From: Candidatus Kerfeldbacteria bacterium
Lineage (GTDB): Bacteria; Patescibacteriota; Patescibacteriia; UBA9570
Direction of reading: 5' to 3'
Length of the DNA stretch: 64,000 bases
Assembly: GCA_016182495.1 (NCBI GenBank)
Contig: JACPGK010000022.1
Location: 11,092 to 75,091, forward strand
Part shown: positions 8,192 through 61,119 of the stretch, piece after piece
Position numbering within the stretch: position 1 is the stretch's first letter
Layout of the letters: each line of letters begins with the position of its first letter
Notes under the pieces: model-generated
Told to the model about the DNA's origin: nothing
Seen by the model: only the letters and a program-made list of their open reading frames with translations
Database searches by the model: none
Translations under genes and position numbers: made by a program

Positions 8192-10885
8192 ATGGCACTG
8201 CTCACAAAATTATTTGGCGATCCTAGCGCCAAAGCAATTAAACAGTTGCAGCCAGTAGTGCAACGCATTACGGCCCTAGAAGCACAGTTTCAGTCATTGA
8301 GCGATGATGAACTGAAAGCTAAAACTGTCGAATTCAAACAACGGCTAAGCCAACATGAAACCCTTGAGCAACTTCTGCCAGAAGCTTTTGCCACAGTTCG
8401 AGAAGCTTCGCGCCGAGTGTTAGGGCAACGTCATTACGATGTGCAATTGCTTGGCGGCATGGTGTTACATCATGGTAAAATTGCCGAAATGAAAACTGGT
8501 GAAGGCAAAACGCTTACTGCTACTCTGCCAGTGTATTTGAATGCCTTAACTGGTCGAGGCGTACATGTGGTGACAGTGAATGATTATTTAGCTCGCCGTG
8601 ACGTTGATTGGATGGGGCGGTTATATCATTGGTTAAATTTGAGTGTTGGGTGCATTCAAAACCAAGGGGTGAGTTATCTATTTGATCCCGATTATCAAAA
8701 GCGGGCTGATACCACTGACCAAAGTACCGTCACCGATACCGAATTGGCCTTTAAAGTAGACATGGATAATTTACGAGCCGTTGATCGTACAACAGCCTAT
8801 CAAGCCGATATCACCTATGGCACCAATAACGAATTTGGTTTTGATTATTTGCGTGATAATATGGTGCAAACCATTGATCAGCGCGTGCAACGAGGCTGGT
8901 TATCTTATGCCATTGTCGATGAAGTCGATAGTATCTTAATCGATGAAGCCCGCACCCCATTAATTATTTCCGGGCAAGCCGAGGCAGCTACCAAGCAGTA
9001 TTATCGGTTTAGTCAGTTGGTGGAGCAATTGGTGGAAAATGACGATTATAACATTGATGAAAAAATGCGCGTGGCTACCTTAACCGATGGTGGCATTGCC
9101 AAAATGGAACAGTGGTTGGATGTGGTCAACATTTACGAAGCTGGCGGCGTAACTTTAGTACATCATATTGAGCAAGCCTTAAAAGCCCAAACCTTGTTCA
9201 AGCGCGATCGTGATTATGTCGTCAAAGATGGCGAGGTGATTATTGTCGATGAATTCACCGGTCGTTTAATGCCCGGACGTCGTTACAGTGAAGGATTACA
9301 TCAGGCCATTGAAGCGAAAGAACGCTTAGAAATTAAGCGCGAATCACGCACTCTGGCTACCATTACCTTTCAAAACTTGTTCCGGTTGTATGAAAAATTA
9401 GCCGGTATGACCGGTACAGCCGAGACAGAAAAAGAAGAATTTTACAAAATTTATAAATTAGATGTCGTTGTCATTCCAACCAATCAACCAATGGTGCGAC
9501 GCGATGGTTCAGATGCTATTTATCGTACCGAACGAGGCAAGTTTAAAGCCGTCGTCAACAAGGTTAGTGAGTTGCATCAGCAAGGGGTGCCAGTATTGGT
9601 TGGAACAATTTCAATTGAAAAAAATGAAATTCTGTCACAGTTATTAAACCAAGCTGGCGTGCCACACCAAGTGTTGAATGCTAAACAGCACGAACGCGAA
9701 GCCGAGATTATCGCGCAAGCTGGTCAGTCTGGAGCGGTCACCATTGCCACCAATATGGCTGGGCGAGGGGTAGATATCATCTTAGGCGGCAATCCGCCCG
9801 ATACTGTCCAGGCCGAGATCGTTCGCAGTGTTGGTGGTTTATTTGTGCTTGGTACCGAGCGTCACGAAGCCAGGCGAATTGATAATCAGTTACGTGGTCG
9901 ATCTGGTCGGCAGGGTGATCCCGGCAAGACGCAATTTTTTGTATCAATGGAAGATGACTTAATGCGTATTTTTGCCACCGATCGGATTAAAAAAATTATG
10001 GGTACACTGAATTGGCCCGAAGATATGCCCATTGAGAATGCCATTGTCAGCCGATCAATTGAAACTGCTCAAAAGAAGGTTGAGGGACATAATTTTGATA
10101 TTCGTGAACATCTCGTTAAATACGATGATGTCATGAATAAACATCGAGAGGTGATTTATCGAAAACGCAATGAAATTTTAAAATCCCCACCTGAAGATAT
10201 TAGTACACTGATCATGGAATTGGTTGAAAACGAAATTGAACAAATTGTATCATTTCATACCAATTTAGAAAATGAACATCAATGGAACATTCAAGAAATT
10301 TACGAATCAATCCGATCAATCTTTCCGGTGGATGAGCAGGTATTGGCTGATATAAAAGCTAAACAGCAGCAAGCCGGTAACAAACTGCAAGATGCCCAAG
10401 CACGTACTAGCCTGGTAGAATATTTGGTACGATTAGCTACTAACCGCTATCAAGCGATGGTGGCCGAAGTTGATAACGCCGAAGTGGTCTATAAAATTGA
10501 ACAAGGCTTTTATCTGCGCGCCATTGATACGTTATGGATCGAACATCTCGATCAAATGAGTTATTTACGTGAAGGCATTAGCTTGCGTGGTTATGGCCAG
10601 CGCGATCCATTAGTAGAGTATAAAAAAGAAGCCTACAGCATGTTTAGCGAATTAATCGCCAACATCCAAAAGCAAGTAGTGTACAGTATTTTCAAAATGG
10701 CCGATGCGTATTCGTTAGCACCATCGGAAATGAAGCAAGTGAAACAAGAGCTACACGGTGCTAAAAAAACGATGGGAAATGATCAAGCCGACTCGCCGAA
10801 CGACTTAGCAAAAGTAGGACGCAACGATCCTTGCCCCTGTGGCTCGGGGAAGAAGTATAAAAAGTGCCATCTCATTGGGAACTAA
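8192..10885 (+). CDS. secA: Preprotein translocase ATPase SecA
   Basis: It has the DEAD motor motifs ([38 protein letters not shown]) and the C-terminal zinc-binding tail [13 protein letters not shown]. Length 897 aa. Confidence 0.97.
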
Positions 10886-10989
10886 TTCTGCCCAAAAGCC
10901 ATAGTAAATTTGATGATTGCTGAGTTAGCAACTACCTAAAATAGGGGATGGGTTTGCAAAATAGGTAAGAAGGCTAACTTGACATCTAG

Positions 10990-11018
10990 TTGACACTTGT
11001 CAAGTAAAACATTATTAT
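10990..11018 (+). promoter_or_regulatory. Near-consensus sigma70 promoter for fic-1
   Basis: TTGACA (10990-95), a 17-nt spacer, TATTAT (11013-18). The -10 ends about 10 nt before the ATG at 11029 with no SD, so the transcript would be leaderless or nearly so. Confidence 0.45.
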
Positions 11019-11028
11019 ATTGACATCT

Positions 11029-12171
11029 ATGGAGAACGTAAAATTAGGAAAATTCGTCAATCAACCTACCGGTTATAAGGCCTTTATTCCTGCAAAGTTT
11101 CCTCCAAGCCAGGCAATTCCTTTTACTGTATTAACGGCCCGGCTTGACGCTAAGGCGACATTAGCCGTTGGCAAGCTTGATGGCATTACCCAACTTTTAC
11201 CAGATCTGGACTTTTTCATCTTCATGTATGTGCGTAAGGAAGCAGCACTGTCGAGTGAGATTGAAGGAACCAAGGCAACGATGAGCGACTCCATCCGGGC
11301 CGAGATTGAAATGACAAAAGATATTCCAGAAGATGTGGATCGAATTTTGCATTATATTAAAGCAATGAACTATGGGTTGAAACGCCTGGAGACATTGCCG
11401 TTGTCACTACGATTGATTCGAGAAGTACATAAAACCTTATTGGCAGGAACTGGTGATGCCCCGGGCAAAACACCAGGTGAGTTTCGTCGTTCGCAAAATT
11501 GGATTGGAGGCGCTTCACCGCAAACTGCCCGTTTTGTGCCACCACCGGTTTCAGAGATGGATCAGGCGTTATATGATCTTGAGAAATTTATGCATGACAC
11601 CAGCGATTTGTCTCCGCTCATCAAGACCGCTCTGTTGCACGCTCAGTTTGAAACAATCCACCCATTTTTAGATGGTAACGGACGCACTGGTCGTCTGTTA
11701 GTTACTTTCTATCTCTGCCAGCAAGGTATTTTGGAGCGACCTACTCTTTATCTCTCGGAGTTTTTCAAACGACACCGACAGCTCTACTTTGATTTGCTAG
11801 AGGGCTATCATCATCGTAATGAGATTGTGCCTTGGGTGAACTTTTTTCTTGAGGGTATTGCAGATGTGGCAGCCAAGGCAGTTGAGACTTCGAAAAAGAT
11901 TAACGTGTTACGCGAGACGGATATGGCAAAAATTCATACCCTCGGTGGCCGACGGTCTAAAACTGGTATGGCAGTCTTGAGGAATCTTTACAAGCTTCCC
12001 ATCGTGAATGTGAGTAAGATAGGGGAATGGACAGGGCTTAGTCGTCAAGGCGCTAATACACTCACCGCCGAGTTGGTAAAGATTAGCATTCTTGAACAGC
12101 GTAATCGTAAAACAACATATGGTCGGGATTTTGAATACCGCAACTATCTTCGTTTATTCACTAAAGAGTGA
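11029..12171 (+). CDS. Fic/DOC family protein (AMPylation-type Fic domain), paralog 1
   Basis: Fic motif HPFLDGNGRTGRLL. The track ORF starts at TTG 11020, but the ATG at 11029 (MENVKL) fits the promoter better. Confidence 0.88.
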   Translation: MENVKLGKFVNQPTGYKAFIPAKFPPSQAIPFTVLTARLDAKATLAVGKLDGITQLLPDLDFFIFMYVRKEAALSSEIEGTKATMSDSIRAEIEMTKDIPEDVDRILHYIKAMNYGLKRLETLPLSLRLIREVHKTLLAGTGDAPGKTPGEFRRSQNWIGGASPQTARFVPPPVSEMDQALYDLEKFMHDTSDLSPLIKTALLHAQFETIHPFLDGNGRTGRLLVTFYLCQQGILERPTLYLSEFFKRHRQLYFDLLEGYHHRNEIVPWVNFFLEGIADVAAKAVETSKKINVLRETDMAKIHTLGGRRSKTGMAVLRNLYKLPIVNVSKIGEWTGLSRQGANTLTAELVKISILEQRNRKTTYGRDFEYRNYLRLFTKE

Positions 12172-12197
12172 TTATGAAACTAGAAATGAAATTAGAC

Positions 12198-12278
12198 ATT
12201 AAAATAACACTACAGTATTACTATAGCCTCCCACTTGGTAATGTCGGCCATATCAAAAAATGCCATGGTCAATAGGAC
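12198..12278. repeat. Degenerate, split copy of the island 3' motif (ATTAAAATAACACTACAG ... TGCCATGGTCAATAGGAC)
   Basis: Both halves of the motif found after the other island genes are present, separated by about 45 bp. Confidence 0.4.
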
Positions 12279-12283
12279 TAGTC

Positions 12284-12312
12284 TGATTCAAGGTTGACAT
12301 TTGTCTAAAAAT
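12284..12312 (+). promoter_or_regulatory. Near-consensus sigma70 promoter for fic-2
   Basis: TTGACA (12284-89), a 17-nt spacer, TAATAT (12307-12). It lies about 30 nt upstream of ATG 12344. Confidence 0.45.
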
Positions 12313-12343
12313 CGTCTAATATACGTCTATACAGTATAGATTT

Positions 12344-13369
12344 ATGTTTGAACCAAAATACACAATAACGAATAAATTACTCGCCAATGTTAAAAAAATT
12401 GGTCAGTTAGTAAGTAGTTTAAATGAGCGGCGCTTTCCGCAAGTGGTGTTATTTGAAATGGAGCGCATCGCTCGAGAAGTTTCAGCTCATGCTTCAACCA
12501 GCATTGAAGGGAATCCGCTCCCACTCACTGATGTGAAGCGCTTACTGAAACAAACGCCTGCACATATCCGTGATACCGAACGAGAAGTATTGAATTACAA
12601 TGAAGCTTTATTGGAGCTGAAAAAACAAGTTGATGCTGGGGTACAGACCTTACAAGAAAAACAAATACTTTCCATCCACGGCATGGTGACGAAGGAGTTG
12701 TTGCCGGTGAGTACGTCTGGGGCATTAAGGACTGAACCTGTGTTTGTGAATGATCCAAAAACACGGCAAACTATTTTCTGGCCGCCTGATCATACTGACG
12801 TACCAAAATTACTAAATGATTTATTGGAATTCGTAAACACACAACATGGTACTGTTGACCCCTTGCTATTAGCTGGAGTTTTTCATAAACAATTTGTTCT
12901 GATTCATCCGTTTATAGATGGCAATGGTCGCACTGTACGCTTAGCCACTAAACTACTTCTAGCTGGATTAGGATTAGATACATTTCATTTATTCAGCTTT
13001 GAACGATACTACAATGCCAATGTCACCAAGTACTTTACCATCGTTGGAGAACGTGGTAGTTATTATGATCTCAAGGTAGACTCTACTGTATGGTTGGAAT
13101 ACTTTACCGATGGTATTATCGATGAACTGATTCGAGTTAAAACTGAATTAGAAAAATCAATTGCAGCACCAGCTTCAGGATTAAAAGCACATCATCGCTT
13201 AATCTTGGATTACTTACGGGAACATGGTTCAATGAATGATGCTATCTACGCTACTCTAGTGAAAAGAGCTAAACCAACCCGGGCTTTAGATTGGCGCTAC
13301 TTGCTTATTAGTGGTTTAATTGAACGACAAAACCAGGGCAAGTCTACTTATTATCGTTTAAAGCAATAA
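12344..13369 (+). CDS. Fic/DOC family protein, paralog 2
   Basis: Fic motif HPFIDGNGRTVRLATKLL. Its architecture is similar to paralog 1 but the sequence has diverged. Confidence 0.88.
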   Translation: MFEPKYTITNKLLANVKKIGQLVSSLNERRFPQVVLFEMERIAREVSAHASTSIEGNPLPLTDVKRLLKQTPAHIRDTEREVLNYNEALLELKKQVDAGVQTLQEKQILSIHGMVTKELLPVSTSGALRTEPVFVNDPKTRQTIFWPPDHTDVPKLLNDLLEFVNTQHGTVDPLLLAGVFHKQFVLIHPFIDGNGRTVRLATKLLLAGLGLDTFHLFSFERYYNANVTKYFTIVGERGSYYDLKVDSTVWLEYFTDGIIDELIRVKTELEKSIAAPASGLKAHHRLILDYLREHGSMNDAIYATLVKRAKPTRALDWRYLLISGLIERQNQGKSTYYRLKQ

Positions 13370-13379
13370 TTTTAATCCC

Positions 13380-13416
13380 ATTAAGATAACACTTCAAACG
13401 TTGCCATGGTCAGTAA
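13380..13416. repeat. Island 3' motif copy (ATTAAGATAACACTTCAAACGTTGCCATGGTCAGTAA)
   Basis: It lies 11 nt after the fic-2 stop and is identical (37/37) to the copy at 14688. Confidence 0.6.
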
Positions 13417-13478
13417 ATTTATCGATTAAGTCAATTACACCTACAGGTCGCTGTTAGGAAAAAACCAAAAGTAGACTT

Positions 13479-13922
13479 TTAGAAATTTAGCTTTAAATCG
13501 CTGTGCTTTACTAATTGTGTGGCTACGAGTTTATCCTTAAACCAAATTCTGACCTCGGCCAGCCCAGGTTGCGTATTTGGCACAACTCTTAAATCAACGG
13601 CGTGTCGTTGTGGTACGCCGGACACGGTAATTTCCAGATTATGAAAGGATATTTTTCGGTAGTTGTCGACGACGCGTTGGTCGCGCAAGGCAAAGATATC
13701 CTTACTCGATTTAAATGGTGGCTTAATGGTAAATGGTCTAAACAATGTCTGTCCGGTATGGATAGCCTGGTCTAATCTGACCCTGGGAATTTGTTTGGTA
13801 GTGGAATGTACCCAAACATTGTTGTATTGGTAAACCAGTTCTTTTAAGACCTTTCTTACTTCTTCTGGTTCAGTAATCTGTTCTTTACAGTATAATGACG
13901 ATGCGATCTTGTAGCCACTGGT
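13479..13922 (-). pseudogene. 5'-truncated hypothetical gene (remnant)
   Basis: The minus-strand frame is open from the TAG at 13922-24 to the stop at 13479. It has no ATG; only a TTG at 13745 (88-aa track ORF). Its 5' end abuts the transposase remnant. Confidence 0.35.
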
Positions 13923-13924
13923 AG

Positions 13925-14119
13925 GATCCTAGTCAGTTCAACGACCAGTTGATGGATTATCTAGTGTGGTACAATACCGAACGACCGCACTGGAGTCTAC
14001 AACTCCAGTCGCCGATCCAGTTTCTACTTAAACAGCATCCGGAGTGCAGTATGTGGTGGCCTCATACAAAAGTTTGCTTTTTAGCTTCATTAATGCTAGG
14101 GTTTATTTATGAAGTTTAA
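13925..14119 (+). pseudogene. C-terminal remnant of a DDE transposase (rve/integrase-core, IS3/IS481-like)
   Basis: The translation ..QLMDYLVWYNTERPHWSLQLQSPIQFLLK.. matches the conserved transposase C-terminus YNxxRPHxSL...P.QF. It is preceded by an in-frame TAG inside the palindrome CTAGGATCCTAG, and nothing upstream resembles a transposase. Confidence 0.55.
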
Positions 14120-14438
14120 GAATACTCTACAAAAAGGATCGGTTAGGTATGTCGTCTTTAAAGAAGGTGAGGATTGGTATGCTGTTGGTTTAGAGTTTAA
14201 TATTATTGAAAGTGGCACCACTCCTCAGGAAGCCCTTTTATTACTTTTTGAAGCCTTGCAGGGTTATGTTGAGACGGCTCAAAAAATTAAGGCTCGTCCT
14301 GCTGTTCTGAACCAAAGAGTTGATTCTGAGTATGAAAGAATGTTCGCCCCCTCTAGAGTTGTAAAAGATCAAAAAAGAGAGATTTTTACCATCGGTGAAT
14401 TTTCTTTGTCTACTGTTAAAGCACTTGCATTCGTTTAG
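14109..14438 (+). CDS. hicB: HicB-family antitoxin (UPF0150/RNase H-like fold)
   Basis: It is a small 109-aa protein with the HicB-like signature (..WYAVGLEF..ESGTTPQEALLLLFEALQGYVE). It lies immediately upstream of a HicA-like ORF with a 3-nt gap. Confidence 0.7.
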   Translation: MKFKNTLQKGSVRYVVFKEGEDWYAVGLEFNIIESGTTPQEALLLLFEALQGYVETAQKIKARPAVLNQRVDSEYERMFAPSRVVKDQKREIFTIGEFSLSTVKALAFV

Positions 14439-14441
14439 GCT

Positions 14442-14672
14442 ATGTCACGAGGACTCTTCAATTGGACCGCGGAAGAGGTTGTTCGTTTTTTAAGGGATCA
14501 TAACTTCACTCCTCATCATTCGCGAGGAAGTCATATGTATTATGTTGGCCATGCTGCGGGTTCTTTTCGTATGGTATGTGTGCCATTTCATGGTAGTAGG
14601 GCTATCAAACCGAGAACGCTTAAAGGTATTATTAGTCAATCTGGGATTTCAAAAGATGTATGGCTAGACTAG
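14442..14672 (+). CDS. hicA: HicA-family mRNA interferase toxin (YcfA-like)
   Basis: 76 aa. The motifs LRDHNF..HHSRGSHMYY and HGSRAIKPRTLKGIISQSGISKD resemble the HicA dsRBD-like fold. Confidence 0.7.
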   Translation: MSRGLFNWTAEEVVRFLRDHNFTPHHSRGSHMYYVGHAAGSFRMVCVPFHGSRAIKPRTLKGIISQSGISKDVWLD

Positions 14673-14687
14673 TATTAAATAGTTCCT

Positions 14688-14724
14688 ATTAAGATAACAC
14701 TTCAAACGTTGCCATGGTCAGTAA
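14688..14724. repeat. Island 3' motif copy (identical to 13380 copy)
   Basis: ATTAAGATAACACTTCAAACGTTGCCATGGTCAGTAA lies 16 nt after the hicA stop. Confidence 0.6.
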
Positions 14725-14749
14725 TTCATCAGTGAGGTTTGCGCGATTC

Positions 14750-14778
14750 TTGCGCGATTGGGTATTTTGATCTATACT
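14750..14778 (+). promoter_or_regulatory. Putative sigma70 promoter for fic-3
   Basis: TTGCGC, a 17-nt spacer, TATACT, which ends 11 nt before ATG 14790. A direct repeat TGCGCGATT occurs twice around the -35. Confidence 0.35.
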
Positions 14779-14789
14779 GATGGTACATT

Positions 14790-15848
14790 ATGTTTCATCC
14801 TGAATATCAATTAACTAATAAAGTTGTAGACTTGCTCACTACTATTGCTGAAGGTCGAGCAGTGATTCAACGTGCTAGACTTCTTCCCAAACAGGAGTTT
14901 AAGCTGCGTCGTCAGGCATTGGTTCGTATGACACATAGTTCAACAGCGATCGAAGGGAATAGATTAAATGTGCGTGAAGTCGAGGCATTGGTAAACAATC
15001 AGAAGGTCGATGCACCAGCGCGTGATGTGTATGAAGTAGAGAACTATCTCAAGGCTTTAAAATACATCGAGCAAGTTATCAAAGAAAAAAAGATAGTGAC
15101 CAAAAATGTTATTCTAAAAATCCATCGCCTGGTCACAACCAAAACATTATCCACTGAATCATCAGGCCGGTATAGAAAAAACATGGTCTATGTCGTCAGA
15201 CGGCATGCCGGCGGTAAGCAAGAGGTCATGTATACAGCTCCAGCAGCCACTCAGGTACCAGGTTTAATGGATGATCTGATTCATTGGGTTCAACGTAGCG
15301 CCAGCCAGGAAATTAATCCGGTAATTGTGGCAGGGATTGTCCATCAAGAAATAGCCGCCATCCATCCCTTTGCTGATGGTAATGGTCGCACTGTTCGAGC
15401 CTTGGCAACCCTAGTGCTCTATCAACGCGGTTACGATTTTCGACGTTTGTTTGCATTGGAAGATTATTATAACAATGACCGGCCGGCTTATTATGCGGCT
15501 ATTAATATTGGAAAAGATTATGTCACTCGGCGTAAAGATTTTACTCCATGGCTTGAATATTTTGTAAATGGGTTTAAAGAAGAAATTGATCAAGTGAGAC
15601 ATCAGGTCGTCAGTTTGTCCTTCAAAAAAATTGATACTGATATTAACTCACAAGTTTTTCTTGATAAAGATCAAGTGGCTATTCTAGATTTTCTTGAATC
15701 GCTTGGTAGAATCACAGTAGGCGATGTAGTGGATATTGTACATTGTCCAAAACGTACCGCTCAATTACAGTTAAAAAAACTGAAGCAGCTCAAACTGATT
15801 GTTGCCAAAGGCAAAGCTCGAGCAACATACTACATCCGTAAGCAGTAG
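14790..15848 (+). CDS. Fic/DOC family protein, paralog 3
   Basis: Fic motif HPFADGNGRTVRALATLVL, plus a C-terminal winged-helix-like region. Confidence 0.88.
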   Translation: MFHPEYQLTNKVVDLLTTIAEGRAVIQRARLLPKQEFKLRRQALVRMTHSSTAIEGNRLNVREVEALVNNQKVDAPARDVYEVENYLKALKYIEQVIKEKKIVTKNVILKIHRLVTTKTLSTESSGRYRKNMVYVVRRHAGGKQEVMYTAPAATQVPGLMDDLIHWVQRSASQEINPVIVAGIVHQEIAAIHPFADGNGRTVRALATLVLYQRGYDFRRLFALEDYYNNDRPAYYAAINIGKDYVTRRKDFTPWLEYFVNGFKEEIDQVRHQVVSLSFKKIDTDINSQVFLDKDQVAILDFLESLGRITVGDVVDIVHCPKRTAQLQLKKLKQLKLIVAKGKARATYYIRKQ

Positions 15849-15851
15849 TCC

Positions 15852-15890
15852 ATTAAAATAATACTTCAAGAAGTGTCACGGGCAATAGAC
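15852..15890. repeat. Island 3' motif copy, subtype B (ATTAAAATAATACTTCAAGAAGTGTCACGGGCAATAGAC)
   Basis: It lies 4 nt after the fic-3 stop and contains the CACTTCAAGAAGTG inverted repeat. Confidence 0.55.
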
Positions 15891-15945
15891 AGATTTCAAG
15901 ACAGGTTTTGACCGCATAATGATACTCAAGTAGAATAACATTGTC

Positions 15946-18192
15946 ATGGCAAGTCAAAAAGGAAAAACCAAAGTAATAATCATCTCGTGTAGCGTGGCGT
16001 TGGGTTTTGCAGCTCTAGTTCTCATCGGCGCGTTTATTTTTGGCATAATTATAGGTTTTAAACAGAATTTAACATCAACCGAAAAGGCAGCCGTCGTTGC
16101 GAATTTACCAAGTATAGATCCCACTACGGAATTAACCACCAACAGCGCTGGCCTCACTGTGGTAAAAAACGTTTTGGAAATTATTTGGCAGAATACAGCT
16201 ACTCCCGAACAGCAAGTTATCGCGCTGGCTTCGGTTCCTGGAGCGACGGTGCGTGGACAAGTGACAGAATTTTATTTTACTGAAATCAGCGTACCAGATG
16301 GTAGTATCGCACTGGCCTTAGCCAACCTGGCTATACAGCCCGGCGTAGCGGCAGTTACGGAAGCGTATGTTGTCGAAGACAATTATGAACCACTCGATCC
16401 TGATTATCAAGATACGGCCAAAAACTGGTGGTTGAAACAAATTGAAGCTGAACCTGCCTGGGAAATTAATCAAGGCGATCCGACTATGCTGGTAGCCGTA
16501 ATTGATGCGGGATTTGAAGTAGATCATCCCGATTTAGCGAGTGTATTTAAAACCGATCTTGGCTTTAATTACAGCTTGCGTGACTGGAATGAAAAACCCG
16601 ACCATGGTACCCATGTGACTGGTATTATTGCCATGCAGCCTAATCAAGTTGGCCTGGTTGGCATTGCTCCAAATATAAAAATTGTGCCGTACAAAATTAT
16701 CACATTTGCCCAAATGGCCGATACCATTCGGATGGCCGCTAATACTGCTAACGTGCAGGTAATCTCCATGAGCCAGGGCTTTAATTGGTGGAATACCAAT
16801 CAACAACGGGCGGCTCAGGGTCTACCGGCTGTGACGACGGCTAACATGCAAACTGCGACACAAGCCGTTGATTTAATCATGCAGCCGGCGGCGGTTTACG
16901 CAAAACAAAAAGGCGTCATCTTGGTACATTCAGCCGGCAATGATGCTCAAAGTGCGGCTTATAATACTTTAAATACCACAGATGTAGTAACAGTGGCTAA
17001 TACCGATACAGTTGATGGTTTAGCGGCTTCATCTAATTTTGGGTCACCGGTGACAATTGGTGCTCCAGGCGAAGGTATTTGGAGTACAGTGGGCGGAAAT
17101 AATTGGACCTATCTATCCGGCACATCAATGGCAACACCATTAGTGGCTGGAACTATTGCCCTAATCCGTTCGGCAAATGCCCAATTATCCTTTGCTGATA
17201 TTGTGAACATTATTCAGAAAACTGGCGAACCTAGTATTTCAATAAGCTTGGATAAGCGTATCAATGCCTGGCAAGCTTTATTGGAAGTCACTCAACAGTA
17301 TGGTGTAAAGGGAATGGTGGTTAATAAAAATGGCGATCCAATTAGCGGTGCCACGGTGCAGCCAAAAGGTTTGCCGGAGTGGGGCTCGGTGAGTGACAAG
17401 TTTGGTCAATTTACCTTAGCGGCTATTCCACGAACCGGTCCTTGGGAAATTACCGGTAAGTATGGAGAAGACATTGGCACATTGATACTAACACCCCTAC
17501 CAGCTGATCAATGGGTAGCGCGCGATGTTGTTCTGACCTTAAAGAATCCTGCCGAACCGCAACTCGACGCCGTCAACTTAGGCTTTCATGGGCAAGCCAT
17601 TAGTCAATGTAGTTATCAAGATAGTGGTTTTCAACCGGGCGATGATTTTTTTGCACTGGGTTGTGATGCAACCGGCTTGTGTACGCAAACAACCAGTTTA
17701 GATATTCGTTTTGATGGTCCAATTACTTTTGCGATGCCGAGCAGTTTGGATGGCGCGTTTACCGGCGAGTTAAGTGAGTATTGGAAACAAAATTATCGTG
17801 ATGGCGAGCTTGATAATATTACCTTTAGTGGCAGCGCCACCCAGTTGGCCAAGAATGAACACATTATTCTCGATGTGATCGGCGTGCAACATACGTATAC
17901 GAAAGATATAGATATTCATGCGGTTGTTACCGGTACCATTGTTAATATCAGTAATCAGAATGATTTGCATTATAGCTATACCATTAGAGTTGATTCGTTT
18001 ATCATTGATCCATTCAAGATTAAAGTGCAAAATCCGCATTATCAAACGCAAACGGCGACATGTACATATACGTTCGATCCCAGCACCGATCCACTGTATA
18101 TCAGTCCAACTGATGGTTATTTTCATATCAGCGCTGATTATACTTTAGGTACGATCACCAATTACGATGCGTTAGAAGGTTTAGCCAATTAA
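15946..18192 (+). CDS. Membrane-anchored subtilisin-like serine protease (peptidase S8) with C-terminal beta-rich extension
   Basis: N-terminal TM helix. The catalytic triad is in canonical D-H-S order: VIDAGFEVDHPDL, HGTHVTGIIA, GTSMATPLVAG. 748 aa. Confidence 0.88.
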   Translation: MASQKGKTKVIIISCSVALGFAALVLIGAFIFGIIIGFKQNLTSTEKAAVVANLPSIDPTTELTTNSAGLTVVKNVLEIIWQNTATPEQQVIALASVPGATVRGQVTEFYFTEISVPDGSIALALANLAIQPGVAAVTEAYVVEDNYEPLDPDYQDTAKNWWLKQIEAEPAWEINQGDPTMLVAVIDAGFEVDHPDLASVFKTDLGFNYSLRDWNEKPDHGTHVTGIIAMQPNQVGLVGIAPNIKIVPYKIITFAQMADTIRMAANTANVQVISMSQGFNWWNTNQQRAAQGLPAVTTANMQTATQAVDLIMQPAAVYAKQKGVILVHSAGNDAQSAAYNTLNTTDVVTVANTDTVDGLAASSNFGSPVTIGAPGEGIWSTVGGNNWTYLSGTSMATPLVAGTIALIRSANAQLSFADIVNIIQKTGEPSISISLDKRINAWQALLEVTQQYGVKGMVVNKNGDPISGATVQPKGLPEWGSVSDKFGQFTLAAIPRTGPWEITGKYGEDIGTLILTPLPADQWVARDVVLTLKNPAEPQLDAVNLGFHGQAISQCSYQDSGFQPGDDFFALGCDATGLCTQTTSLDIRFDGPITFAMPSSLDGAFTGELSEYWKQNYRDGELDNITFSGSATQLAKNEHIILDVIGVQHTYTKDIDIHAVVTGTIVNISNQNDLHYSYTIRVDSFIIDPFKIKVQNPHYQTQTATCTYTFDPSTDPLYISPTDGYFHISADYTLGTITNYDALEGLAN

Positions 18193-18227
18193 GATAACAC
18201 TTCAAGAAGTGCCACGGGCAATAGATT
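18188..18227. repeat. Island 3' motif copy, subtype B (ATTAAGATAACACTTCAAGAAGTGCCACGGGCAATAGAT)
   Basis: It overlaps the subtilase stop codon, because the TAA lies inside ATTAAG. Confidence 0.55.
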
Positions 18228-18258: not shown

Positions 18259-19404
18259 TTGTATACTATATACGTGAATTATATAAGAACAATTTTTGAT
18301 CAACTGTACGAAAATATAGGCAAAAAACCTATCGTAGTGTTATATGGAGCGCGACAAGTTGGCAAAACTACTTTAATAAAGTCTATTCTGGCGAAATTTT
18401 CTCACACCTTATATTTACAGGGAGATGATCCCAAAGAAGCTCTTTTACTTGAACACCGGTCAGCCAAAGAATTGGCGGAGCTTGTCTCCGGATATGAATT
18501 AGTAGTAATTGACGAAGCTCAGCGAGTGAAAGATATTGGTATTTCACTCAAGCTCATGGCAGATAACGTAGAACAGATACAAGTTATTGCTACTGGATCA
18601 TCTTCTTTTGAATTAGCTAATAAATTAAATGAGCCATTAACAGGGAGAAATCGTAAATTTTATTTGTACCCACTATCCATTAAAGAAGTAGTGGCTGCGC
18701 ATGGCCAGATAGCTATCAGTAAAGAACTGGATTCTCTAGTCACATTTGGCTTGTATCCAGCTATAGTAAATGCTCCATCCAGAGCAGATAAAGCGACTTT
18801 GATTAAAGAATTAGCCGGAGATTATTTATTTAAGGATCTATTTTTATTTGGAGATATACGCAACTCATTTGCCTTTGAAAAATTAGTAAAACTACTCGCC
18901 TTGCGCATAGGGAGTCAAATATCATATTCAGAACTGGCCAAAGAAGTTGGTATCAGTAGAGATACTATTTACAATTATATAAATCTACTTGAACAAGCGT
19001 TTATTATTTTTCGTTTAACGCCACTGTATACTAATAAAACCAAAGAGATTAATAAAAGTCACAAAATATATTTTTATGATGTCGGTATACGAAATGCCCT
19101 GATCGGTAACACTGACCCAATCGATCTGCGACCAGATAAAGGGGCAATATTTGAGAATTTTTTTATTGCCGAAAAAATAAAAGAGCGGGCTTATAATATG
19201 CGTTCAAGCGATATTCATTTTTGGAGAAATAGACAAGGATCCGAAATAGATTTTGTTGAATCAAGTAATGCGCACAAGGAAATTTTTGCTTATGAATGTA
19301 AATGGAAAGAAACTATCACTGTACCCAAAGCCTTCAAAGCAGCTTATCCGCAGAGTCAGTTTGAATGTATCACCACTGAAAATATCGTTAAGCATTTTGT
19401 ATGA
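18259..19404 (+). CDS. AAA-family ATPase with DUF4143-type C-terminal domain
   Basis: P-loop GARQVGKTTL and Walker B VVIDEAQ. The real start may be GTG 18274 (MNYIRT...), which leaves the typical ~24 aa before the P-loop. Confidence 0.75.
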   Translation: MYTIYVNYIRTIFDQLYENIGKKPIVVLYGARQVGKTTLIKSILAKFSHTLYLQGDDPKEALLLEHRSAKELAELVSGYELVVIDEAQRVKDIGISLKLMADNVEQIQVIATGSSSFELANKLNEPLTGRNRKFYLYPLSIKEVVAAHGQIAISKELDSLVTFGLYPAIVNAPSRADKATLIKELAGDYLFKDLFLFGDIRNSFAFEKLVKLLALRIGSQISYSELAKEVGISRDTIYNYINLLEQAFIIFRLTPLYTNKTKEINKSHKIYFYDVGIRNALIGNTDPIDLRPDKGAIFENFFIAEKIKERAYNMRSSDIHFWRNRQGSEIDFVESSNAHKEIFAYECKWKETITVPKAFKAAYPQSQFECITTENIVKHFV

Positions 19405-55870: not shown

Positions 55871-56617
55871 CTATGATAGTGGACTTTTTATGTTTTTAAG
55901 CTTTGGATTTGTAACATGGGTATACTGTTGGGTGGTTCTAATATTCTGATGGCCAAGCAACTCTTGAACATAACGAATATCAACACCGTTTTCTAATAAG
56001 TGAGTAGCAAAGCTATGTCTTAAGCTATGAAAGGTGGCATTTTTTTGGATCCCAGATTTTTTTAAAGAATTTTCAAAAATTTTTTGAGCACTTCTCGTTG
56101 TTAAGTTTCCGCCCCGCTCACTTGCAAAGATAAAATCATCATGATTTTTTCCGCTGCACAAATTTTTAAGATCAGCTACCAATTTTTCTGGCAATATACT
56201 CATTCTATCTTTTTGCCCCTTAGCTTGTTTGATATGAATGGTTAGTTCAGCAAGATCAATATCTTTTACCTTTAGTGCAACCACTTCACTCACTCTAAGT
56301 CCTGCGCCATAAGAAAGTGACAATAAAATTTTGTGTTTTGTATTTTTGGTTGTCTCTAAAATTTTTTCAATTTCTATTCTTGATAATACTATAGGCAAAC
56401 TTTTTGGTTTTTTAGCAGATTGGATATCAATTTTTTGGTTATTTTTCACTACATCTCGATAATAAAACTTAATTGCATTTAGAAATAAATTTCTGCTTTG
56501 CGCAGAGGTATTCTTTTGTTTGCACTCTAATAAAAAGTCTTTGATATTATCTGGCTGTACTATTTCAAAGTTTTGTTTTTTAAAGCAAAAGTATTTTTGT
56601 AAGCCATAAAGGTACAT
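55871..56617 (-). CDS. Tyrosine site-specific recombinase (XerC/D-like phage-integrase family), possibly N-terminally truncated
   Basis: The catalytic residues are in canonical order: R (AGLRVSE), HxxR (HSLRHSFATHLL), Y (RTTQQYTHV). At 248 aa only about 60 aa of the core-binding domain are present. Confidence 0.8.
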   Translation of the reverse strand: MYLYGLQKYFCFKKQNFEIVQPDNIKDFLLECKQKNTSAQSRNLFLNAIKFYYRDVVKNNQKIDIQSAKKPKSLPIVLSRIEIEKILETTKNTKHKILLSLSYGAGLRVSEVVALKVKDIDLAELTIHIKQAKGQKDRMSILPEKLVADLKNLCSGKNHDDFIFASERGGNLTTRSAQKIFENSLKKSGIQKNATFHSLRHSFATHLLENGVDIRYVQELLGHQNIRTTQQYTHVTNPKLKNIKSPLS

Positions 56618-56647
56618 TTTTACAGTTTTTGGACTATAATTTCTGAT

Positions 56648-56700
56648 GTTCAGTTCTCGTTCAGTTCTCGTTCAGTTCTCGTTCAGTTCTCGTTCAGTTC
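56648..56700. repeat. Tandem 11-bp direct repeat (GTTCAGTTCTC) x4.8
   Basis: Seen directly, 31 nt upstream of the recombinase start codon, between the recombinase and the cassette region. Confidence 0.9.
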
Positions 56701-56714
56701 GATTTAGTTGTTTT

Positions 56715-56743
56715 TGCATAATTGTTTGAAATGTTGTATAATA
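56715..56743 (+). promoter_or_regulatory. Consensus-like sigma70 promoter directed into the cassette region
   Basis: TTGCAT (56715-20), a 17-nt spacer, TATAAT (56738-43). Confidence 0.45.
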
Positions 56744-56825
56744 AAAAAGTTTTATTACGAAACAAATAATACCATCTATTCATATAATATACAATAAAAT
56801 AATTATTTTTAAATTTTTATTCGTA

Positions 56826-56980
56826 TAATAACTAGTTGTGCAAAATCGCTCCGCTCTTTGCACAACGCCTCGCGGTTCCCGCTGTTGCACTCGTCGCTCC
56901 GCGACATCGCACAACAGCGGCTAGACTCCATGTCGATCTGAACACTGCGTGTTCATCTTGCCACGGCGCCTAGCCGCGAG
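56826..56980. repeat. GC-rich structured repeat element copy A (attC-like / MITE-like)
   Basis: About 155 bp with outer inverted repeats AACGCCTCGCGG / CCGCGAGGCGTT. Nested stems are TTGTGCAAA..TTTGCACAA, CCGCTGTTG..CAACAGCGG and TGAACACtgcGTGTTCA. It ends in GTTAGGC. Confidence 0.6.
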
Positions 56981-57125
56981 GCGTTAGGCGACATATTTTT
57001 GAAAATTTGTTTTTAAAAGAGGGTGATTATAAAGTGTTTTCTTCACTTCGTTACGAAAACTATTTAAATATTAGCGGAAATTTTTATATAATGATTACAA
57101 CTTTTAATTTATAAAGAGAAAAAAT

Positions 57126-57578
57126 ATGAAAGAGAAATTTTATGAAAAATATGCTTGGGTAATTTTTCTTGTTATCGGTCTTATGGTTTTAGTAGGGGGA
57201 ATGCCCCATATGTTAGGGGTTAATACAGACCCAGCTTTAGTTGAAACCATTAGCGGACAAACAATAGATGAACTTAAATCATCAAGTCCGATGTTCTTTG
57301 ACTTATATAATTTTTATTTTAGTGGGGGAGGTTTGTCTGATGTGGGGGTTGCTTTTTTCCTGTTAGTCATTTCCATATTTGCCTATAGAACAGGTCAAAA
57401 ATGGGCTTGGTATGCTTTTTGGTTTGTCCCGGTTTACTTTTTATTTTGGATAGCCCTCAGTTCAGCCCTGCCATCCGCATCACAATCGTTGCTACTTTCG
57501 CCATTAATAGTGATTATAGTTTTAAGTCTCGCGGGATTACTCTTGCCTTTTAGAAAGTTTTTTCCAAAAAAACAATAG
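57126..57578 (+). CDS. Hypothetical 4-TM membrane protein (cassette ORF)
   Basis: 150 aa, hydrophobic, AT-rich codon usage distinct from the upstream chromosome. Confidence 0.5.
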   Translation: MKEKFYEKYAWVIFLVIGLMVLVGGMPHMLGVNTDPALVETISGQTIDELKSSSPMFFDLYNFYFSGGGLSDVGVAFFLLVISIFAYRTGQKWAWYAFWFVPVYFLFWIALSSALPSASQSLLLSPLIVIIVLSLAGLLLPFRKFFPKKQ

Positions 57579-57899
57579 ATTCGATCCAATCGCAGGAGAG
57601 ATTATCTAATATTAACCTCAAATTATGCGTTACTAAAAAAAATCAAATTACCAAAAAATTTTATAACAAATAATTTATAATTAAAAGAGATACTACCATG
57701 AAAAACATAAATAAAAAACCCACAAAAAACGAAAATAATATGGATAAATTTTTCAAAAATACGCAAGGCACGTTGCACTCTCACTCCGCTATCGCTCCGT
57801 TCGGCTCGCCTAACACAGTATATGCGATTCGCTCGTTGCACTTCGCTCTCCCATATTTTTCTCCGTTTCACTCCGCAAAACATCGCATATACTGAAACG

Positions 57900-58050
57900 T
57901 TGTGTAAAATCGCTCCGCTCTTTGCACAACGCCTCGCGGTTCCCGCTGTTGCACTCGTCGCTGCGCGACATCGCACAACAGCGGCTAGACTCCATGTCGA
58001 TCTGAACACTGCGTGTTCATCTCGCCACGGCGCCTAGCCGCGAGGCGTTA
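57900..58050. repeat. GC-rich structured repeat element copy B
   Basis: Over 95% identical to copy A, with degenerate fragments in the preceding ~140 bp. It ends in GCGTTAT immediately before ATG 58052. Confidence 0.6.
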
Positions 58051-58051
58051 T

Positions 58052-58573
58052 ATGCCATTAGCAAAAAAAATGAAGCATCCGGTACCAAATCAACATCTAA
58101 TCCATATCGGTGACGTCGTCGTCTCTTTTGCACTATTAGAACTAGCGATCCAAAGTCTAATAGGATCATTAATATTCGAACATCAAAGGGTAGGCCAAAT
58201 TATCACAGCGGAACTTTCATTTAAAAATCTACGCGCACTTGCAATTAGTCTTTACCTTGATAGGCATGGTGAAGATAGCGACTATTCAAAATTGAAACCA
58301 TTGATGAACGAGGCTGGCAAAATTGAGGAGACACGAAACAATATAATTCACTCCATTTGGGCCGCAGGCAAGGATAAAGACCATATCACCAGAATCAAAA
58401 CAACCGCAAAAGAGAAAAAAGGGTTAGCATTTTGCTTTGAAGAATTATCAGTAAGCGACTTAGAAAGTTTCGCTGGGAAAATACAGCAATGTGCTGGAAG
58501 TGTTCAAAGTTTCAATTTTGAATTAATTAAGACCAAGAAGGCTATTAATAATCCTATTCTGAAGTTGTGGTAG
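58052..58573 (+). CDS. Hypothetical protein with Rx4H (HEPN-like) motif (cassette ORF)
   Basis: Start chosen at MPLAKKMKHPV, directly after repeat B; the track start at 58013 lies inside the repeat. It contains the motif ETRNNIIHSIW. Confidence 0.45.
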   Translation: MPLAKKMKHPVPNQHLIHIGDVVVSFALLELAIQSLIGSLIFEHQRVGQIITAELSFKNLRALAISLYLDRHGEDSDYSKLKPLMNEAGKIEETRNNIIHSIWAAGKDKDHITRIKTTAKEKKGLAFCFEELSVSDLESFAGKIQQCAGSVQSFNFELIKTKKAINNPILKLW

Positions 58574-58697
58574 TTTTTTTGCTAACAGCATATAACAGCG
58601 TGTATACAGCTTGTTCACTTCCTGCGTGCGTTCACTCGCCCAAATTTGACTTATTTTTTATTTAGTGATAAATTAGAAGCATAAAATTACTAAACAT

Positions 58698-58919
58698 ATG
58701 CGCAAAATAGACCTCAAATCAGTGGTATGGAAAGAGGGTGATTATTACGTCTCCCAATCTTTAGATGTTGATGTTTCCAGTTTTGGCAAAACAAAAAAAG
58801 AGGCCCTGACAATGCTGCAAGATGCTTTGGCGTTATACTTTGAAGATGTTCCACTACCAATAAAGACAGAGCGTGTGAAAGAACCGTCTATTGCTTCGGT
58901 TACTCTGCAGCATGCCTAA
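58698..58919 (+). CDS. hicB: HicB-family antitoxin (second copy)
   Basis: 73 aa (..WKEGDYYVSQSLDVDVSSFGKTKKEALTMLQDALALYFE). Overlaps the HicA start by 8 nt (ATGCCTAA). Confidence 0.65.
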   Translation: MRKIDLKSVVWKEGDYYVSQSLDVDVSSFGKTKKEALTMLQDALALYFEDVPLPIKTERVKEPSIASVTLQHA

Positions 58920-59127
58920 ACCATATCCACTTCGACTTGTCATTAAAGTCCTTGAAAACAAGGGCTTCTTTTTTGTTTCTCAAACTGGCTCACACGCCAA
59001 ATATCGCAAAGCAGGGATTCAAACACTGACCGCCATTGTGCCAATTCATGGTAAAGAAATCCGTTATGGTACTTTTCGGTCTATTTTGCGACAAACAAAA
59101 TTAAAAGAGGAGGATTTTCAAGATTAA
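58912..59127 (+). CDS. hicA: HicA-family toxin (second copy)
   Basis: MPKPYPLRLVIKVLENKGFFFVSQTGSHAKYRK...IPIHGKEIRYGTFRSILRQTKL matches the HicA/YcfA signature. Confidence 0.7.
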   Translation: MPKPYPLRLVIKVLENKGFFFVSQTGSHAKYRKAGIQTLTAIVPIHGKEIRYGTFRSILRQTKLKEEDFQD

Positions 59128-59151
59128 AAAAATAAGTCAAACTTTGCATAC

Positions 59152-59215
59152 ACCATGTCGATCTGAACACTGCGTGTTCATCTTGCCACGGCGCCTAGCC
59201 GCGAGGCGTTAGGCG
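59152..59215. repeat. GC-rich structured repeat element, 3' half only (copy C)
   Basis: It matches the last ~65 bp of copies A and B, including TGAACACTGCGTGTTCA and the terminal CCGCGAGGCGTTAGGCG. Confidence 0.55.
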
Positions 59216-59281
59216 AAATAATTCTTGAAAATTCCCTATTGAAATGAAATTTTTATTTCCCTTTCCAAAAATTAAGTCCTT

Positions 59282-60196
59282 ATGATGAAAATAGAAAAAG
59301 AAATTGCCGAACGTATCTACAATTACGAAAATCCAAAAAAAATTGCTCTTTCCAGAAAATATCCATTTCTAAAAAAGCCAATTATTTTTTTGCGTCATTT
59401 ATTTCGAGATATACAAAATTTTTTTGATTTTAGGATTAAATATGAAAGAAAAAATGATTTTTTCGACTGTATTATAGCAAGGCATCAATCAGTATTAAGA
59501 CGCAAGCTCGGAGATAGTAATCCAAAGCTACAAGAACAAAAGATTGTTAATCTTAAACAAGCTATTCAACGATTAAATGGCATAGTTATACAACCAAATC
59601 ATGTCTTTTCGCTTTGGAATATTATCGGTAAGCCAAAATATGAAAACGGATATGTTGATGGAATGCTACTGTCAAACGGCAAAGTTGTAGAGGGAATCGG
59701 TGGCGGACTTTGCCAATTATCCAATTTTCTTTACTGGATTTTTCTACATGCCCCAATTGAGACGACTGAGAGGTATCATCACTCTATGGATGTTTTTCCG
59801 GATTCTGGCAGAACTTTGCCGTTTGGCGGAGGAGCAACAATTTTATACAATTTCATTGATCTAAAAGTAAAAAACATATCAATATATCCGTTTCAGTTAA
59901 AAATATGGCTTACCGATAATCATTTGAAGGGTCAAATACTATCTCCTCGCCCCATAGCACAAAAATTTCATATTTTTGAAAAAAATCATTTTTTCGTTAA
60001 AAGAGGTAAAAAATATTTTCGATATAATGAAATTTACAAAGAAACTAAAATTGGTGGGAAAGTAGAAAAAATCGAAAAAATTACCACAAATTTTGCACCA
60101 GCGCTTTACAAGGTGACAGATGAATATCTGCAAAAAAATAATTTTAGGATTTTGGATTTTACGAACAGGGAAATAAAAATTTTAAATAAGGAATGA
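59282..60196 (+). CDS. VanW-like domain protein (cassette ORF)
   Basis: The motif GIGGGLCQLSNFLYW resembles the VanW family GGGVCQ core. 304 aa. Confidence 0.5.
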   Translation: MMKIEKEIAERIYNYENPKKIALSRKYPFLKKPIIFLRHLFRDIQNFFDFRIKYERKNDFFDCIIARHQSVLRRKLGDSNPKLQEQKIVNLKQAIQRLNGIVIQPNHVFSLWNIIGKPKYENGYVDGMLLSNGKVVEGIGGGLCQLSNFLYWIFLHAPIETTERYHHSMDVFPDSGRTLPFGGGATILYNFIDLKVKNISIYPFQLKIWLTDNHLKGQILSPRPIAQKFHIFEKNHFFVKRGKKYFRYNEIYKETKIGGKVEKIEKITTNFAPALYKVTDEYLQKNNFRILDFTNREIKILNKE

Positions 60197-60211
60197 ATTT
60201 TCAAGAATTAC

Positions 60212-60241
60212 AACGCCTCGCGGTTCCCGCGAGGCGTTAGC
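60212..60241. repeat. Solo hairpin formed by the element's terminal inverted repeats (AACGCCTCGCGG ttc CCGCGAGGCGTT)
   Basis: A perfect 12-bp stem with a 3-nt loop, followed by AGCTGAAAT as at copy E. Confidence 0.6.
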
Positions 60242-60259
60242 TGAAATTCATTTCAAAAT

Positions 60260-60730: not shown

Positions 60731-60782
60731 AATGAACTTCACCTAACACGGGCTAGTCGCTTCGCTCACTAATTTTTTTTCA

Positions 60783-61118: not shown

Positions 61119-61119
61119 T

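Follow-up and report, generated by a model that had tools for sequence, protein, structure and literature searches.

What is the function, if any, of a short sequence that is repeated behind functionally unrelated genes standing side by side in one bacterial genome? The question is raised by a gene island directly downstream of secA in a 64 000-nt stretch of DNA from a Candidatus Kerfeldbacteria bacterium (GenBank assembly GCA_016182495.1, contig JACPGK010000022.1, positions 11 092–75 091, forward strand), here termed the window. The island comprises three fic genes (fic-1, fic-2 and fic-3), a hicBA pair and a subtilase gene. An earlier note on this DNA had described a conserved motif after each gene, and read it either as a cassette-boundary recombination site or as a common 3′-untranslated region (UTR) processing or termination signal. 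We find that the repeated motif is a junction scar, in which a fixed arm of 20 bp is joined to a duplicate of the seven final secA codons. On balance we favour the view that it marks the junctions at which small mobile gene cassettes have recombined into the 3′ end of secA. The cassette-boundary reading was right in outline, but missed what the motif is made of. Its identity as an arm plus a displaced secA end is new information, and explains the two ‘subtypes’ that had been distinguished, the location of the copies and their restriction to one locus.

Copies of the motif in the window

Four full copies are present, all on the + strand of the 12.2–18.2 kb region, together with one split copy. 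An IUPAC pattern of the motif is matched without mismatch at 13380–13416, 14688–14724 and 18188–18224, and with three mismatches at 15852–15888, all on the + strand. With no match in 100 shuffled sequences, the copies reported at 13380, 14688, 15852 and 18188 are real, and those at 13380 and 14688 are indeed identical at 37/37 positions. The degenerate copy noted after fic-1 is likewise present, with its pattern halves at 12198–12211 and 12261–12275 and an insert of 41 nt between the complete halves. A profile hidden Markov model (HMM) built from the copies found no additional one elsewhere in the window. Alignment of the copies, which are 76–100% identical to each other in DNA, shows that the conserved unit is ∼41 bp and not ∼37 bp as first described, since 3–4 further bases (yCCc) before ATTAAG are also conserved.

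The motif starts 0–26 nt beyond the stop codon of the preceding gene, and the stop codon of the subtilase sits within its own copy, in the arm of the junction, as the reported overlap with its TAA had indicated. Gene ends do precede the copies, but the statement that one follows every island gene is too loose, because hicB and hicA share a single copy and the linkage of the motif to the gene upstream is no closer than that to the promoter and gene downstream.

A fixed arm joined to the end of secA

The two parts of the motif meet at the boundary 16|17. The arm occupies motif positions −3 to 16, with the 20-bp consensus yCCCATTAARATAACACTTC, and the secA-end copy occupies positions 17–37, with the 21-bp consensus AAR AAR/CGT TGY CAY GGN CAR TAR, corresponding to K-K/R-C-H-G-Q-stop. 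The origin of the second part is seen in a Candidatus Kerfeldbacteria metagenome-assembled genome, the single other genome found in a strict pattern scan of one genome per species (L007; the comparison loci, among them those fetched as contexts of Fic-2 homologues, carry L-numbers). Its SecA ends GGT AAG AAG TAT AAG AAG TGT CAT GGT CAG TAA (KKCHGQ*), and the motif located 850 nt downstream of secA reads CACTTC AAG AAG TGC CAT GGT CAG TAG. The secA end and motif positions 17–37 match at 19 of 21 nucleotides, and these positions are therefore a copy of the last seven secA codons.

In every copy positions 17–37 encode K-K/R-C-H-G-x-stop, match real secA ends at 15–20 of 21 nucleotides, and vary in the manner of coding sequence. 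Over 15 distinct copies from eight genomes or contigs, which are not phylogenetically independent, the minor-allele counts at codon positions 1, 2 and 3 are 10, 11 and 48, and for the Cys-His-Gly codons they are 0, 0 and 22. Arginine is spelled CGT or AGA, and the stop codon is TAA, TAG or TGA. The peptide variants KKCHGQ, KRCHGQ, KKCHGA and KKCHGK are all real SecA C-termini among the 120 closest SecA proteins. The supposed structural subtypes are instead synonymous or conservative codon variants of one coding remnant (AAG AAG and AAA CGT giving KK and KR; CAY, GGK, CAR and TAR). Copies also resemble the secA of their own genome. In L012, SecA ends CHGK* (GGG AAG TAA) and the motif copy ends GGG AAG TAG, and is followed by 69 nt that are ∼94% identical to the secA 3′ flank. 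In L015 the copy and the resident secA share a GGA glycine codon that is otherwise unused. Partial HMM matches outside the motif copies in the fetched loci were true secA ends only.

The arm is ∼4-fold less variable than the right half, with 0.8 minor alleles per site compared with 3.3. It is non-coding, since an in-frame TAA precludes coding, and bears no likeness to the secA sequence upstream of the copied codons.

Organization of the island

The features of the island in the window are as follows.

8192–10885, + strand: secA, the gene directly upstream of the island
10861–10885, + strand: chimeric secA 3′ end, AAA AAG TGC CAT / CTC ATT GGG AAC TAA (KKCH/LIGN*)
10886–12193, + strand: fic-1 cassette, with a promoter-like site at 10990–11018 and a Fic_N/Fic gene at 11020–12171
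12194–12275, + strand: split junction, with left arm 12194–12213, a 41-nt insert and secA-end copy 12255–12275
12276–13375, + strand: fic-2 cassette, with promoter 12294–12322 and Fic gene 12344–13369
13376–13416, + strand: junction 2, arm TCCCATTAAGATAACACTTC and AAA CGT TGC CAT GGT CAG TAA (KRCHGQ*)
13417–14683, + strand: hicBA cassette, with an IS3/IS481 transposase remnant at 13949–14119, a hicB-like gene at 14109–14438 and hicA at 14442–14672
14684–14724, + strand: junction 3, identical to junction 2 at 40 of 41 positions
14725–15847, + strand: fic-3 cassette, gene 14790–15848, with a promoter region containing TTGCGCGATT repeats
15848–15888, + strand: junction 4, arm and AAG AAG TGT CAC GGG CAA TAG (KKCHGQ*)
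15889–18183, + strand: subtilase (Peptidase_S8) cassette, with a promoter-like site at 15908–15936 and the gene at 15946–18192
18184–18224, + strand: junction 5, the last copy, arm and AAG AAG TGC CAC GGG CAA TAG (KKCHGQ*)
18259–19404, + strand: AAA_14/DUF4143 ATPase gene, the first past the last junction

The end of secA in the window departs from the usual KKCHGQ* just after CAT, and the SEC-C motif is still detected. A weak resemblance to the motif just after the secA stop codon (10886–10925) was not supported by the HMM. The secA-end copy of the split junction is AAA AAA TGC CAT GGT CAA TAG (KKCHGQ*). No copies occur from the ATPase gene to the YkuD genes at 29.9 kb. The promoter-like sites upstream of fic-1, fic-2, the subtilase and the ATPase are consensus matches, at 9–11 of 12 positions. 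The DNA between junction 2 and hicB (13417–14108) is degraded, and the IS3/IS481 insertion sequence (IS) remnant corresponds to the C-terminal part of a transposase. An 88-aa open reading frame on the minus strand (13479–13745) has no family match.

The three Fic paralogues are only 27–31% identical as proteins, compared with 76–100% DNA identity between the motif copies. The motif has thus been maintained and not merely inherited, and the same contrast led us to reject the idea that the repeats arose solely by duplication of a fic unit in tandem.

Three direct CGTCTAA/T repeats, spaced ∼10 bp apart, lie in the fic-2 promoter region (12294–12340). Similar repeats are found in L007 (9946–9990), L012 (9950–9990), L015 (9955–9995) and, just upstream of 10001, in L045 and L047. 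As they are kept in distant fic-2 homologues that lack the motif, they are likely to be an operator for autoregulation by the Fic winged-helix domain.

The secA locus in related genomes

The earlier note had proposed that the whole genome and related metagenomes be searched for the motif. The strict scan found L007 alone, and a looser scan of a metagenome collection of 241 million records found three contigs; both returned this clade only. Nearly all of the closest Fic-2 homologues share one place in the genome, in the order murC-murB-hpf-secA-[variable genes]-...-secDF. Six further Kerfeldbacteria or Patescibacteria genomes have a variable island directly after secA, and in five of these (L007, L008, L011, L012 and L015) copies of the motif stand where gene content changes, so that the motif is present in other islands. 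Wherever secA is visible in the fetched loci (the window, L007, L008/L009, L011, L012–L014 and L015/L016) the copies are downstream of it and in its orientation. L004 appears syntenic, the contig being cut before secA. The motif is not ubiquitous after housekeeping genes; it is absent after the other genes of the window and of the 598-kb contig of L007, including a second Fic-rich locus on that contig. It is also absent from the other 56 kb of the window and from L017 and L018, so a dispersed pattern such as that of repetitive extragenic palindromes (REP) or miniature inverted-repeat transposable elements (MITE) is not seen. The more distant homologues of fic-2, from Uhrbacteria and Paceibacterota, lie away from secA and lack the motif.

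The genes lying between motif copies are not the same in each genome. L007 carries a 132-aa gene, fic-2, a 392-aa gene and onward; L008 a Na/Ca exchanger, an fn3 protein and fic-3; L011 fic-1, a 510-aa gene, a fic-3 pseudogene, fic-2, DUF218 with a 214-aa gene, and fic-3; and L015 ASCH-Maf-fic-2 as a single unit. Nucleotide homology of the window to these loci is limited to the blocks 10001–12172, 12253–13370/13417 and 14684–15891, which both start and finish in motif copies. The fic-1 region is collinear with L011 4463–6716, the fic-2 block (12253 to 13370/13417) is homologous in L007 and L011, and the fic-3 cassette is homologous to L008 7139–8291 and L011 12755–13955, with the homology starting in the upstream motif. 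The arm directly adjoins the fic-2 3′ end in four genomes in which the following genes differ, and the secA-end copy is contiguous with the fic-2 and the fic-3 promoters in three genomes each, in which the preceding genes differ. Since the arm is tied to the gene end and the secA-end copy to the promoter, the unit is [secA-end copy–promoter–gene(s)–arm].

A seventh genome (L049/L050) has a nearly empty site, where secA is followed by ∼390 nt and then the YkuD genes; in L049 (12700–13160) secA ends CHMNID*. Relative to L049, 10886–29900 of the window is extra DNA, within which 19.4–28.2 kb contains two P-type ATPases, an ABC transporter and DsbD/HMA metal genes.

The secA end also receives insertions of other forms. 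In L012 a two-gene insert lies between 90-bp repeats that comprise the secA end and 69 nt of its flank. In L051 a 39-nt secA-end direct repeat (12719–12757 and 13285–13323) surrounds a single 0.5-kb gene, with no arm, which makes it a second type of insertion at this target. The L051 cassette gene apparently starts at an ATG within AAATGTCATGG of secA. These repeats mark the secA end as a general insertion hotspot in the clade. The split junction after fic-1 is also present in L011 (6721–6803), where the hexamer CACTTC stands on both sides of the insert, and the 36–41-nt insert is homologous between the window and L011.

Several side observations concern these loci. In the metagenome contigs L003 (133–741) and L004 (11615–12349) the motif is immediately preceded by a truncated reverse transcriptase gene, with a best match to the group II intron reverse transcriptase family TIGR04416 (E = 1e-19 and 1e-13, respectively), and that of L004 is fused to a Z1-domain fragment. 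In L045 (Uhrbacteria) the repeat GGCTTCAACCTCTCGGGGTGYGGTCTTCATGTTGG, of up to 190 bp, occurs in three copies (8937–9123, 9902–9962 and 11031–11218). The fic-2 homologue there is not at secA and is flanked by this different direct repeat, which suggests that fic cassettes use other sites elsewhere. The Logan contigs L005 and L006, short-read assemblies from the same organism, are identical to the window at 8836–13409 and 12220–13409. Their ends inside the motif (13409) were rejected as evidence of mobility, since an assembly will break at a repeat longer than the k-mer; L006 also begins within the split junction, at 12220, perhaps because of a strain variant or a drop in coverage.

A model for cassette insertion

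We suggest that the arm is the right end of the upstream cassette and the secA-end copy the left end of the downstream one, so that a cassette would consist of a secA-end mimic, its own promoter, one or more genes and the arm. Closed into a circle, such a cassette would have a single arm+secA-end site, identical with the motif. Recombination of this site with the real secA end, or with an existing junction, would insert the cassette. SecA would gain a fresh but equivalent C-terminus with its functional zinc finger kept, and the old end would be pushed downstream to stand after the arm. Insertion of circles would give the same structure at every boundary, and repeated events could build the array secA–fic1–fic2–(IS remnant, hicBA)–fic3–subtilase. 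The right half of the motif would be under protein-level selection because from time to time it has to act as the terminus of an essential gene. We infer from this arrangement both a circular intermediate and the action of a recombinase whose gene lies elsewhere in the genome.

The geometry of the sites is compatible with a simple recombinase site. GAAGTG occurs in inverted orientation in the arm and the right half, on the two sides of a central AA. Both genomes with fic-1 beside secA (the window and L011) have the chimeric SecA end KKCH/LIGN*, and this end is an inverted copy of the arm, matching at 15 of 20 positions in the window and 18 of 20 in L011. One of the two differences in L011 changes TAT to CAT, and restores the zinc-ligand histidine. 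The arm, AA and the L011 chimeric end would together form a palindrome at 18/21 positions, while random 42-mers never exceeded 15/21; such symmetry around AA is as might be expected of a site bound by a recombinase dimer. In the other cassettes the resemblance of the left end to the inverted arm is confined to the inner GAAGTGYCAY. In the atypical secA ends (the window, L011 and L049) divergence always begins right after TGY CAT, which brackets the exchange region to motif positions ∼14–28, and the exchange would take place there, around the boundary of arm and secA end. The lox- or dif-like geometry suggests a simple-site tyrosine recombinase of the Xer or integron-integrase kind; alternatively a serine recombinase might act at the central AA.

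A number of observations weigh against this model. No recombinase gene was found in or beside any island examined, using Pfam and NCBIfam on the island genes and the gene tables of the related loci, and in those loci there is no tyrosine recombinase within 10 kb. The sole recombinase of the window is an integron-type integrase 37.6 kb away (55871–56617), and the only transposase trace in the islands is the IS3/IS481 remnant. The idea that a small island protein might be a hidden recombinase or excisionase was rejected, as seven such proteins do not align and the unannotated ones have no NCBIfam match. Neither a circular cassette nor a presence/absence variant within a species was observed. The repeat is 21 nt long with the arm, 39 nt without it (L051) and 90 nt in L012, and this variation also fits homologous recombination of the Campbell type. 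For subtype A copies the palindromic match (7/21) does not exceed that of random sequence. The insert of 36–41 nt in the junction after fic-1 is left unaccounted for, and the ending of the window SecA in an inverted copy of the arm (CHLIGN*) is not predicted by the simple model. A phage or plasmid attP was considered, but scans of viral contigs gave chance partial matches only, and the chimeric secA end was unmatched.

Alternative explanations

Of the alternatives, the one we take most seriously, while still thinking it unlikely, is that the locus is a graveyard of conventional integrase-carrying islands. These would have inserted into an attB at the secA 3′ end, each bringing a replacement end, and have decayed to useful or addictive genes (Fic and HicAB) and att repeats. 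Direct repeats of the 3′ end of a target gene are the classic signature of integrative islands, and the repeats here fit it; toxin-like cargo dominates, IS and reverse-transcriptase remnants are present, and the L051 39-nt secA-end repeat stands without an arm. Yet none of the eight islands keeps even a fragment of an integrase, and the units are tidy, with the arm 0–26 nt past the stop codon and the promoter directly after the secA-end copy. Moreover the same minimal fic-2 and fic-3 units recur across several genomes. About as unlikely, or slightly more so, is homologous recombination with no dedicated recombinase, in which natural transformation and RecA would act through secA, neighbouring genes or the 21–90-bp repeats, and the repeats would be by-products of Campbell-type single crossovers. 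The variable repeat length, the failure to find a recombinase and the position of the locus between highly conserved genes all accord with this, and the split fic-1 junction and the L012 and L051 repeats leave room for a contribution from it, or from re-inserted multi-cassette circles. But it does not explain why unrelated cassettes should all end in one 20-bp non-coding arm whose conservation is tighter than that of the coding half, nor the fixed boundary 16|17, nor the 18/21 inverted-repeat relation of the arm and the chimeric secA end. Homologies of 21–41 bp are at or below the length that RecA uses efficiently. That the motif serves the promoters behind it as an upstream operator or insulator, for example bound by Fic winged-helix domains, seems to us very improbable. 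The orders motif–promoter–fic2 and motif–promoter–fic3 are each kept in three genomes, with the promoter-like site 18–35 nt downstream of the motif. Against this, the motif also precedes genes other than fic (subtilase, ATPase, HicB and nucleotidyltransferase), its distance to the −35 box is variable, one half shows coding-type variation and follows the secA allele of the host, and distant fic-2 homologues keep the operator-like CGTCTAA repeats without it.

We give hardly any credence to the remaining two explanations, in which the motif is an RNA signal or an attC site. A shared terminator or 3′-UTR processing signal would suit its placement between a stop codon and the next promoter, and some copies contain a 6-bp hairpin CACTTCAAGAAGTG. 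However, the hairpin is missing from subtype A, where it has been lost, in agreement with the remark in the earlier note that subtype B alone contains one. For nine of ten copies from the window and its relatives the folding z-scores lie between −0.2 and +1.1, no better than shuffled sequences. There is no U-tract, a terminator scan called nothing at any copy, and Rfam (gathering thresholds) and tRNA/tmRNA searches were empty. With its coding-like variation, and its absence after all other genes of the window and of the 598-kb related contig, the motif does not behave as the termination signal that had been offered as an alternative. The other explanation is a second, integrase-less integron array (a cluster of attC sites lacking integron integrases, CALIN) with unusual attC sites. 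The array is unidirectional, with single-gene cassettes and typical cargo, and a canonical integron lies 37.6 kb away in the same genome. attC sites are ∼55–141 bp long, with R″ (RYYYAAC) and R′ (GTTRRRY) boxes in an imperfect inverted repeat able to fold as single-stranded DNA. The present site is 41 bp, compared with at least ∼55 bp for attC, and has neither R″/R′ boxes, a conserved GTTRRRY, nor an extended inverted repeat or stable single-strand fold; complementarity between the arms of the motif extends to only 7–10 of 21 positions. The cassettes carry their own promoters, and no integron integrase, attI or Pc was found between secA and the island. The attC sites of the window itself (AACGCCTCGCGG...CCGCGAGGCGTTAGGC) are unrelated to the motif, in which none of the attC features looked for is present, and this upholds the earlier distinction between the two kinds of site. 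A partial resemblance of AACACT...TGCCACGG to the centre of the long attC sites was judged to be chance.

Other features of the window

The canonical integron occupies 55871–61250, with attC sites of the form given above. Its integrase (55871–56617, minus strand, 248 aa) is of the integron/Xer type and scores 204 bits against TIGR02249, below the cut-off of 265. Three long attC sites (∼56835–56990, 57899–58050 and 59150–59215) are 83–95% identical, and an 11-bp tandem repeat GTTCAGTTCTC is present five times at ∼56649–56703, beside the start of the integrase. Just past the integron, an AbiEii-type nucleotidyltransferase toxin gene (61970–63253) with a preceding 205-aa gene (together 61360–63253) adds to the load of defence and toxin genes. 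Between 41059 and 55714 there are ∼8 paralogous genes of 520–580 aa with treble-clef zinc-finger motifs (PF13451), 60–85% identical in stretches, and most of the repeat families recorded in the window trace to them.

Discussion

The host belongs to a group of uncultured groundwater bacteria. Mobile elements have been little charted in the Candidate Phyla Radiation, and the small genomes of these organisms are assumed to leave scant space for accessory DNA. At this locus a defined hotspot downstream of secA gathers genes of the defence and toxin type (Fic, HicAB, protease and reverse transcriptase) as minimal cassettes, and the 41-bp signature provides a marker for such cassettes in metagenomes. 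The arm+secA-end site and the secA end form a concrete pair of substrates with which a recombinase might be identified. The locus would also be a case of a recombination site under protein-coding selection, periodically becoming the end of an essential gene. There is a caution as well, in that a conserved motif after stop codons may be a displaced gene end and not an RNA signal.

A wider proposal, which we put forward tentatively and with less conviction than the cassette junctions themselves, is that Kerfeldbacteria and their relatives possess an integron-like platform for cassette capture. The last seven codons of secA would be its permanent docking site, the 41-bp motif its cassette site with a right half that is a working replacement end, and the recombinase would be encoded elsewhere, perhaps of a kind not yet linked to cassette mobility. 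In the literature consulted, the coverage of which was incomplete, there was no description of secA as an integration site or of the motif, and nothing relevant on integrons in Patescibacteria.

The cassettes can be compared with several known systems. The staphylococcal cassette chromosome elements (SCC and SCCmec) are composite islands of 3–60 kb at the 3′ end of rlmH (orfX) in staphylococci, at least some of which carry ccr large serine recombinases. Their insertion point lies in the final codons of a conserved housekeeping gene, whose reading frame is kept, as seen here in the intact SecA ends with SEC-C and in divergence points that fall behind TGY CAT or behind the stop codon, and they leave a direct repeat of the gene 3′ end at every element boundary, as is also found here. 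They form tandem arrays, whose members lacking a recombinase are thought to have been moved in trans. The ends of SCC elements are imperfect inverted repeats; here that relation is seen for the fic-1 element (15/20 in the window and 18/20 in L011), the other cassettes sharing no more than GAAGTGYCAY. The present units differ in being 1.1–2.3 kb and mostly single genes, with no ccr-type recombinase found among the island genes, and in target gene, host phylum and site sequence.

Like integrons, the array consists of small, mostly single-gene cassettes in one direction, each ending in a site able to supply a stop codon, with the secA end taking the role of attI and with cargo rich in toxin–antitoxin and defence-type genes. 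Unlike integrons, it has a 41-bp site of double-strand type without R″/R′ boxes or a folded hairpin, its cassettes have their own promoters where integron cassettes are mostly promoterless and driven by Pc, an integrase is lacking beside it, and the coding end of an essential gene acts as the platform. Xer-dependent elements, such as the arrays of integrative mobile elements exploiting Xer (IMEX) at dif and the pdif modules of Acinetobacter plasmids, are similar in being small recombinase-free modules that use host tyrosine recombinases and short sites. They accumulate in tandem at one chromosomal site, and their integration regenerates a usable site. The target here is secA and not the terminus dif, however, and the sites are all direct, whereas pdif sites alternate. 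A comparison by eye with the consensus of the 28-bp Xer site, in which a XerC arm and a conserved XerD arm (TTATGTTAAAT-like) flank a 6-bp centre in an 11-6-11 layout, gave no convincing arms. Finally, islands at the 3′ ends of tRNA, tmRNA and protein genes also carry a replacement 3′ end and leave the displaced end as the far direct repeat. Those islands are much larger and have a cognate integrase beside att, whereas the elements at secA are minimal cassettes with a conserved extra arm.

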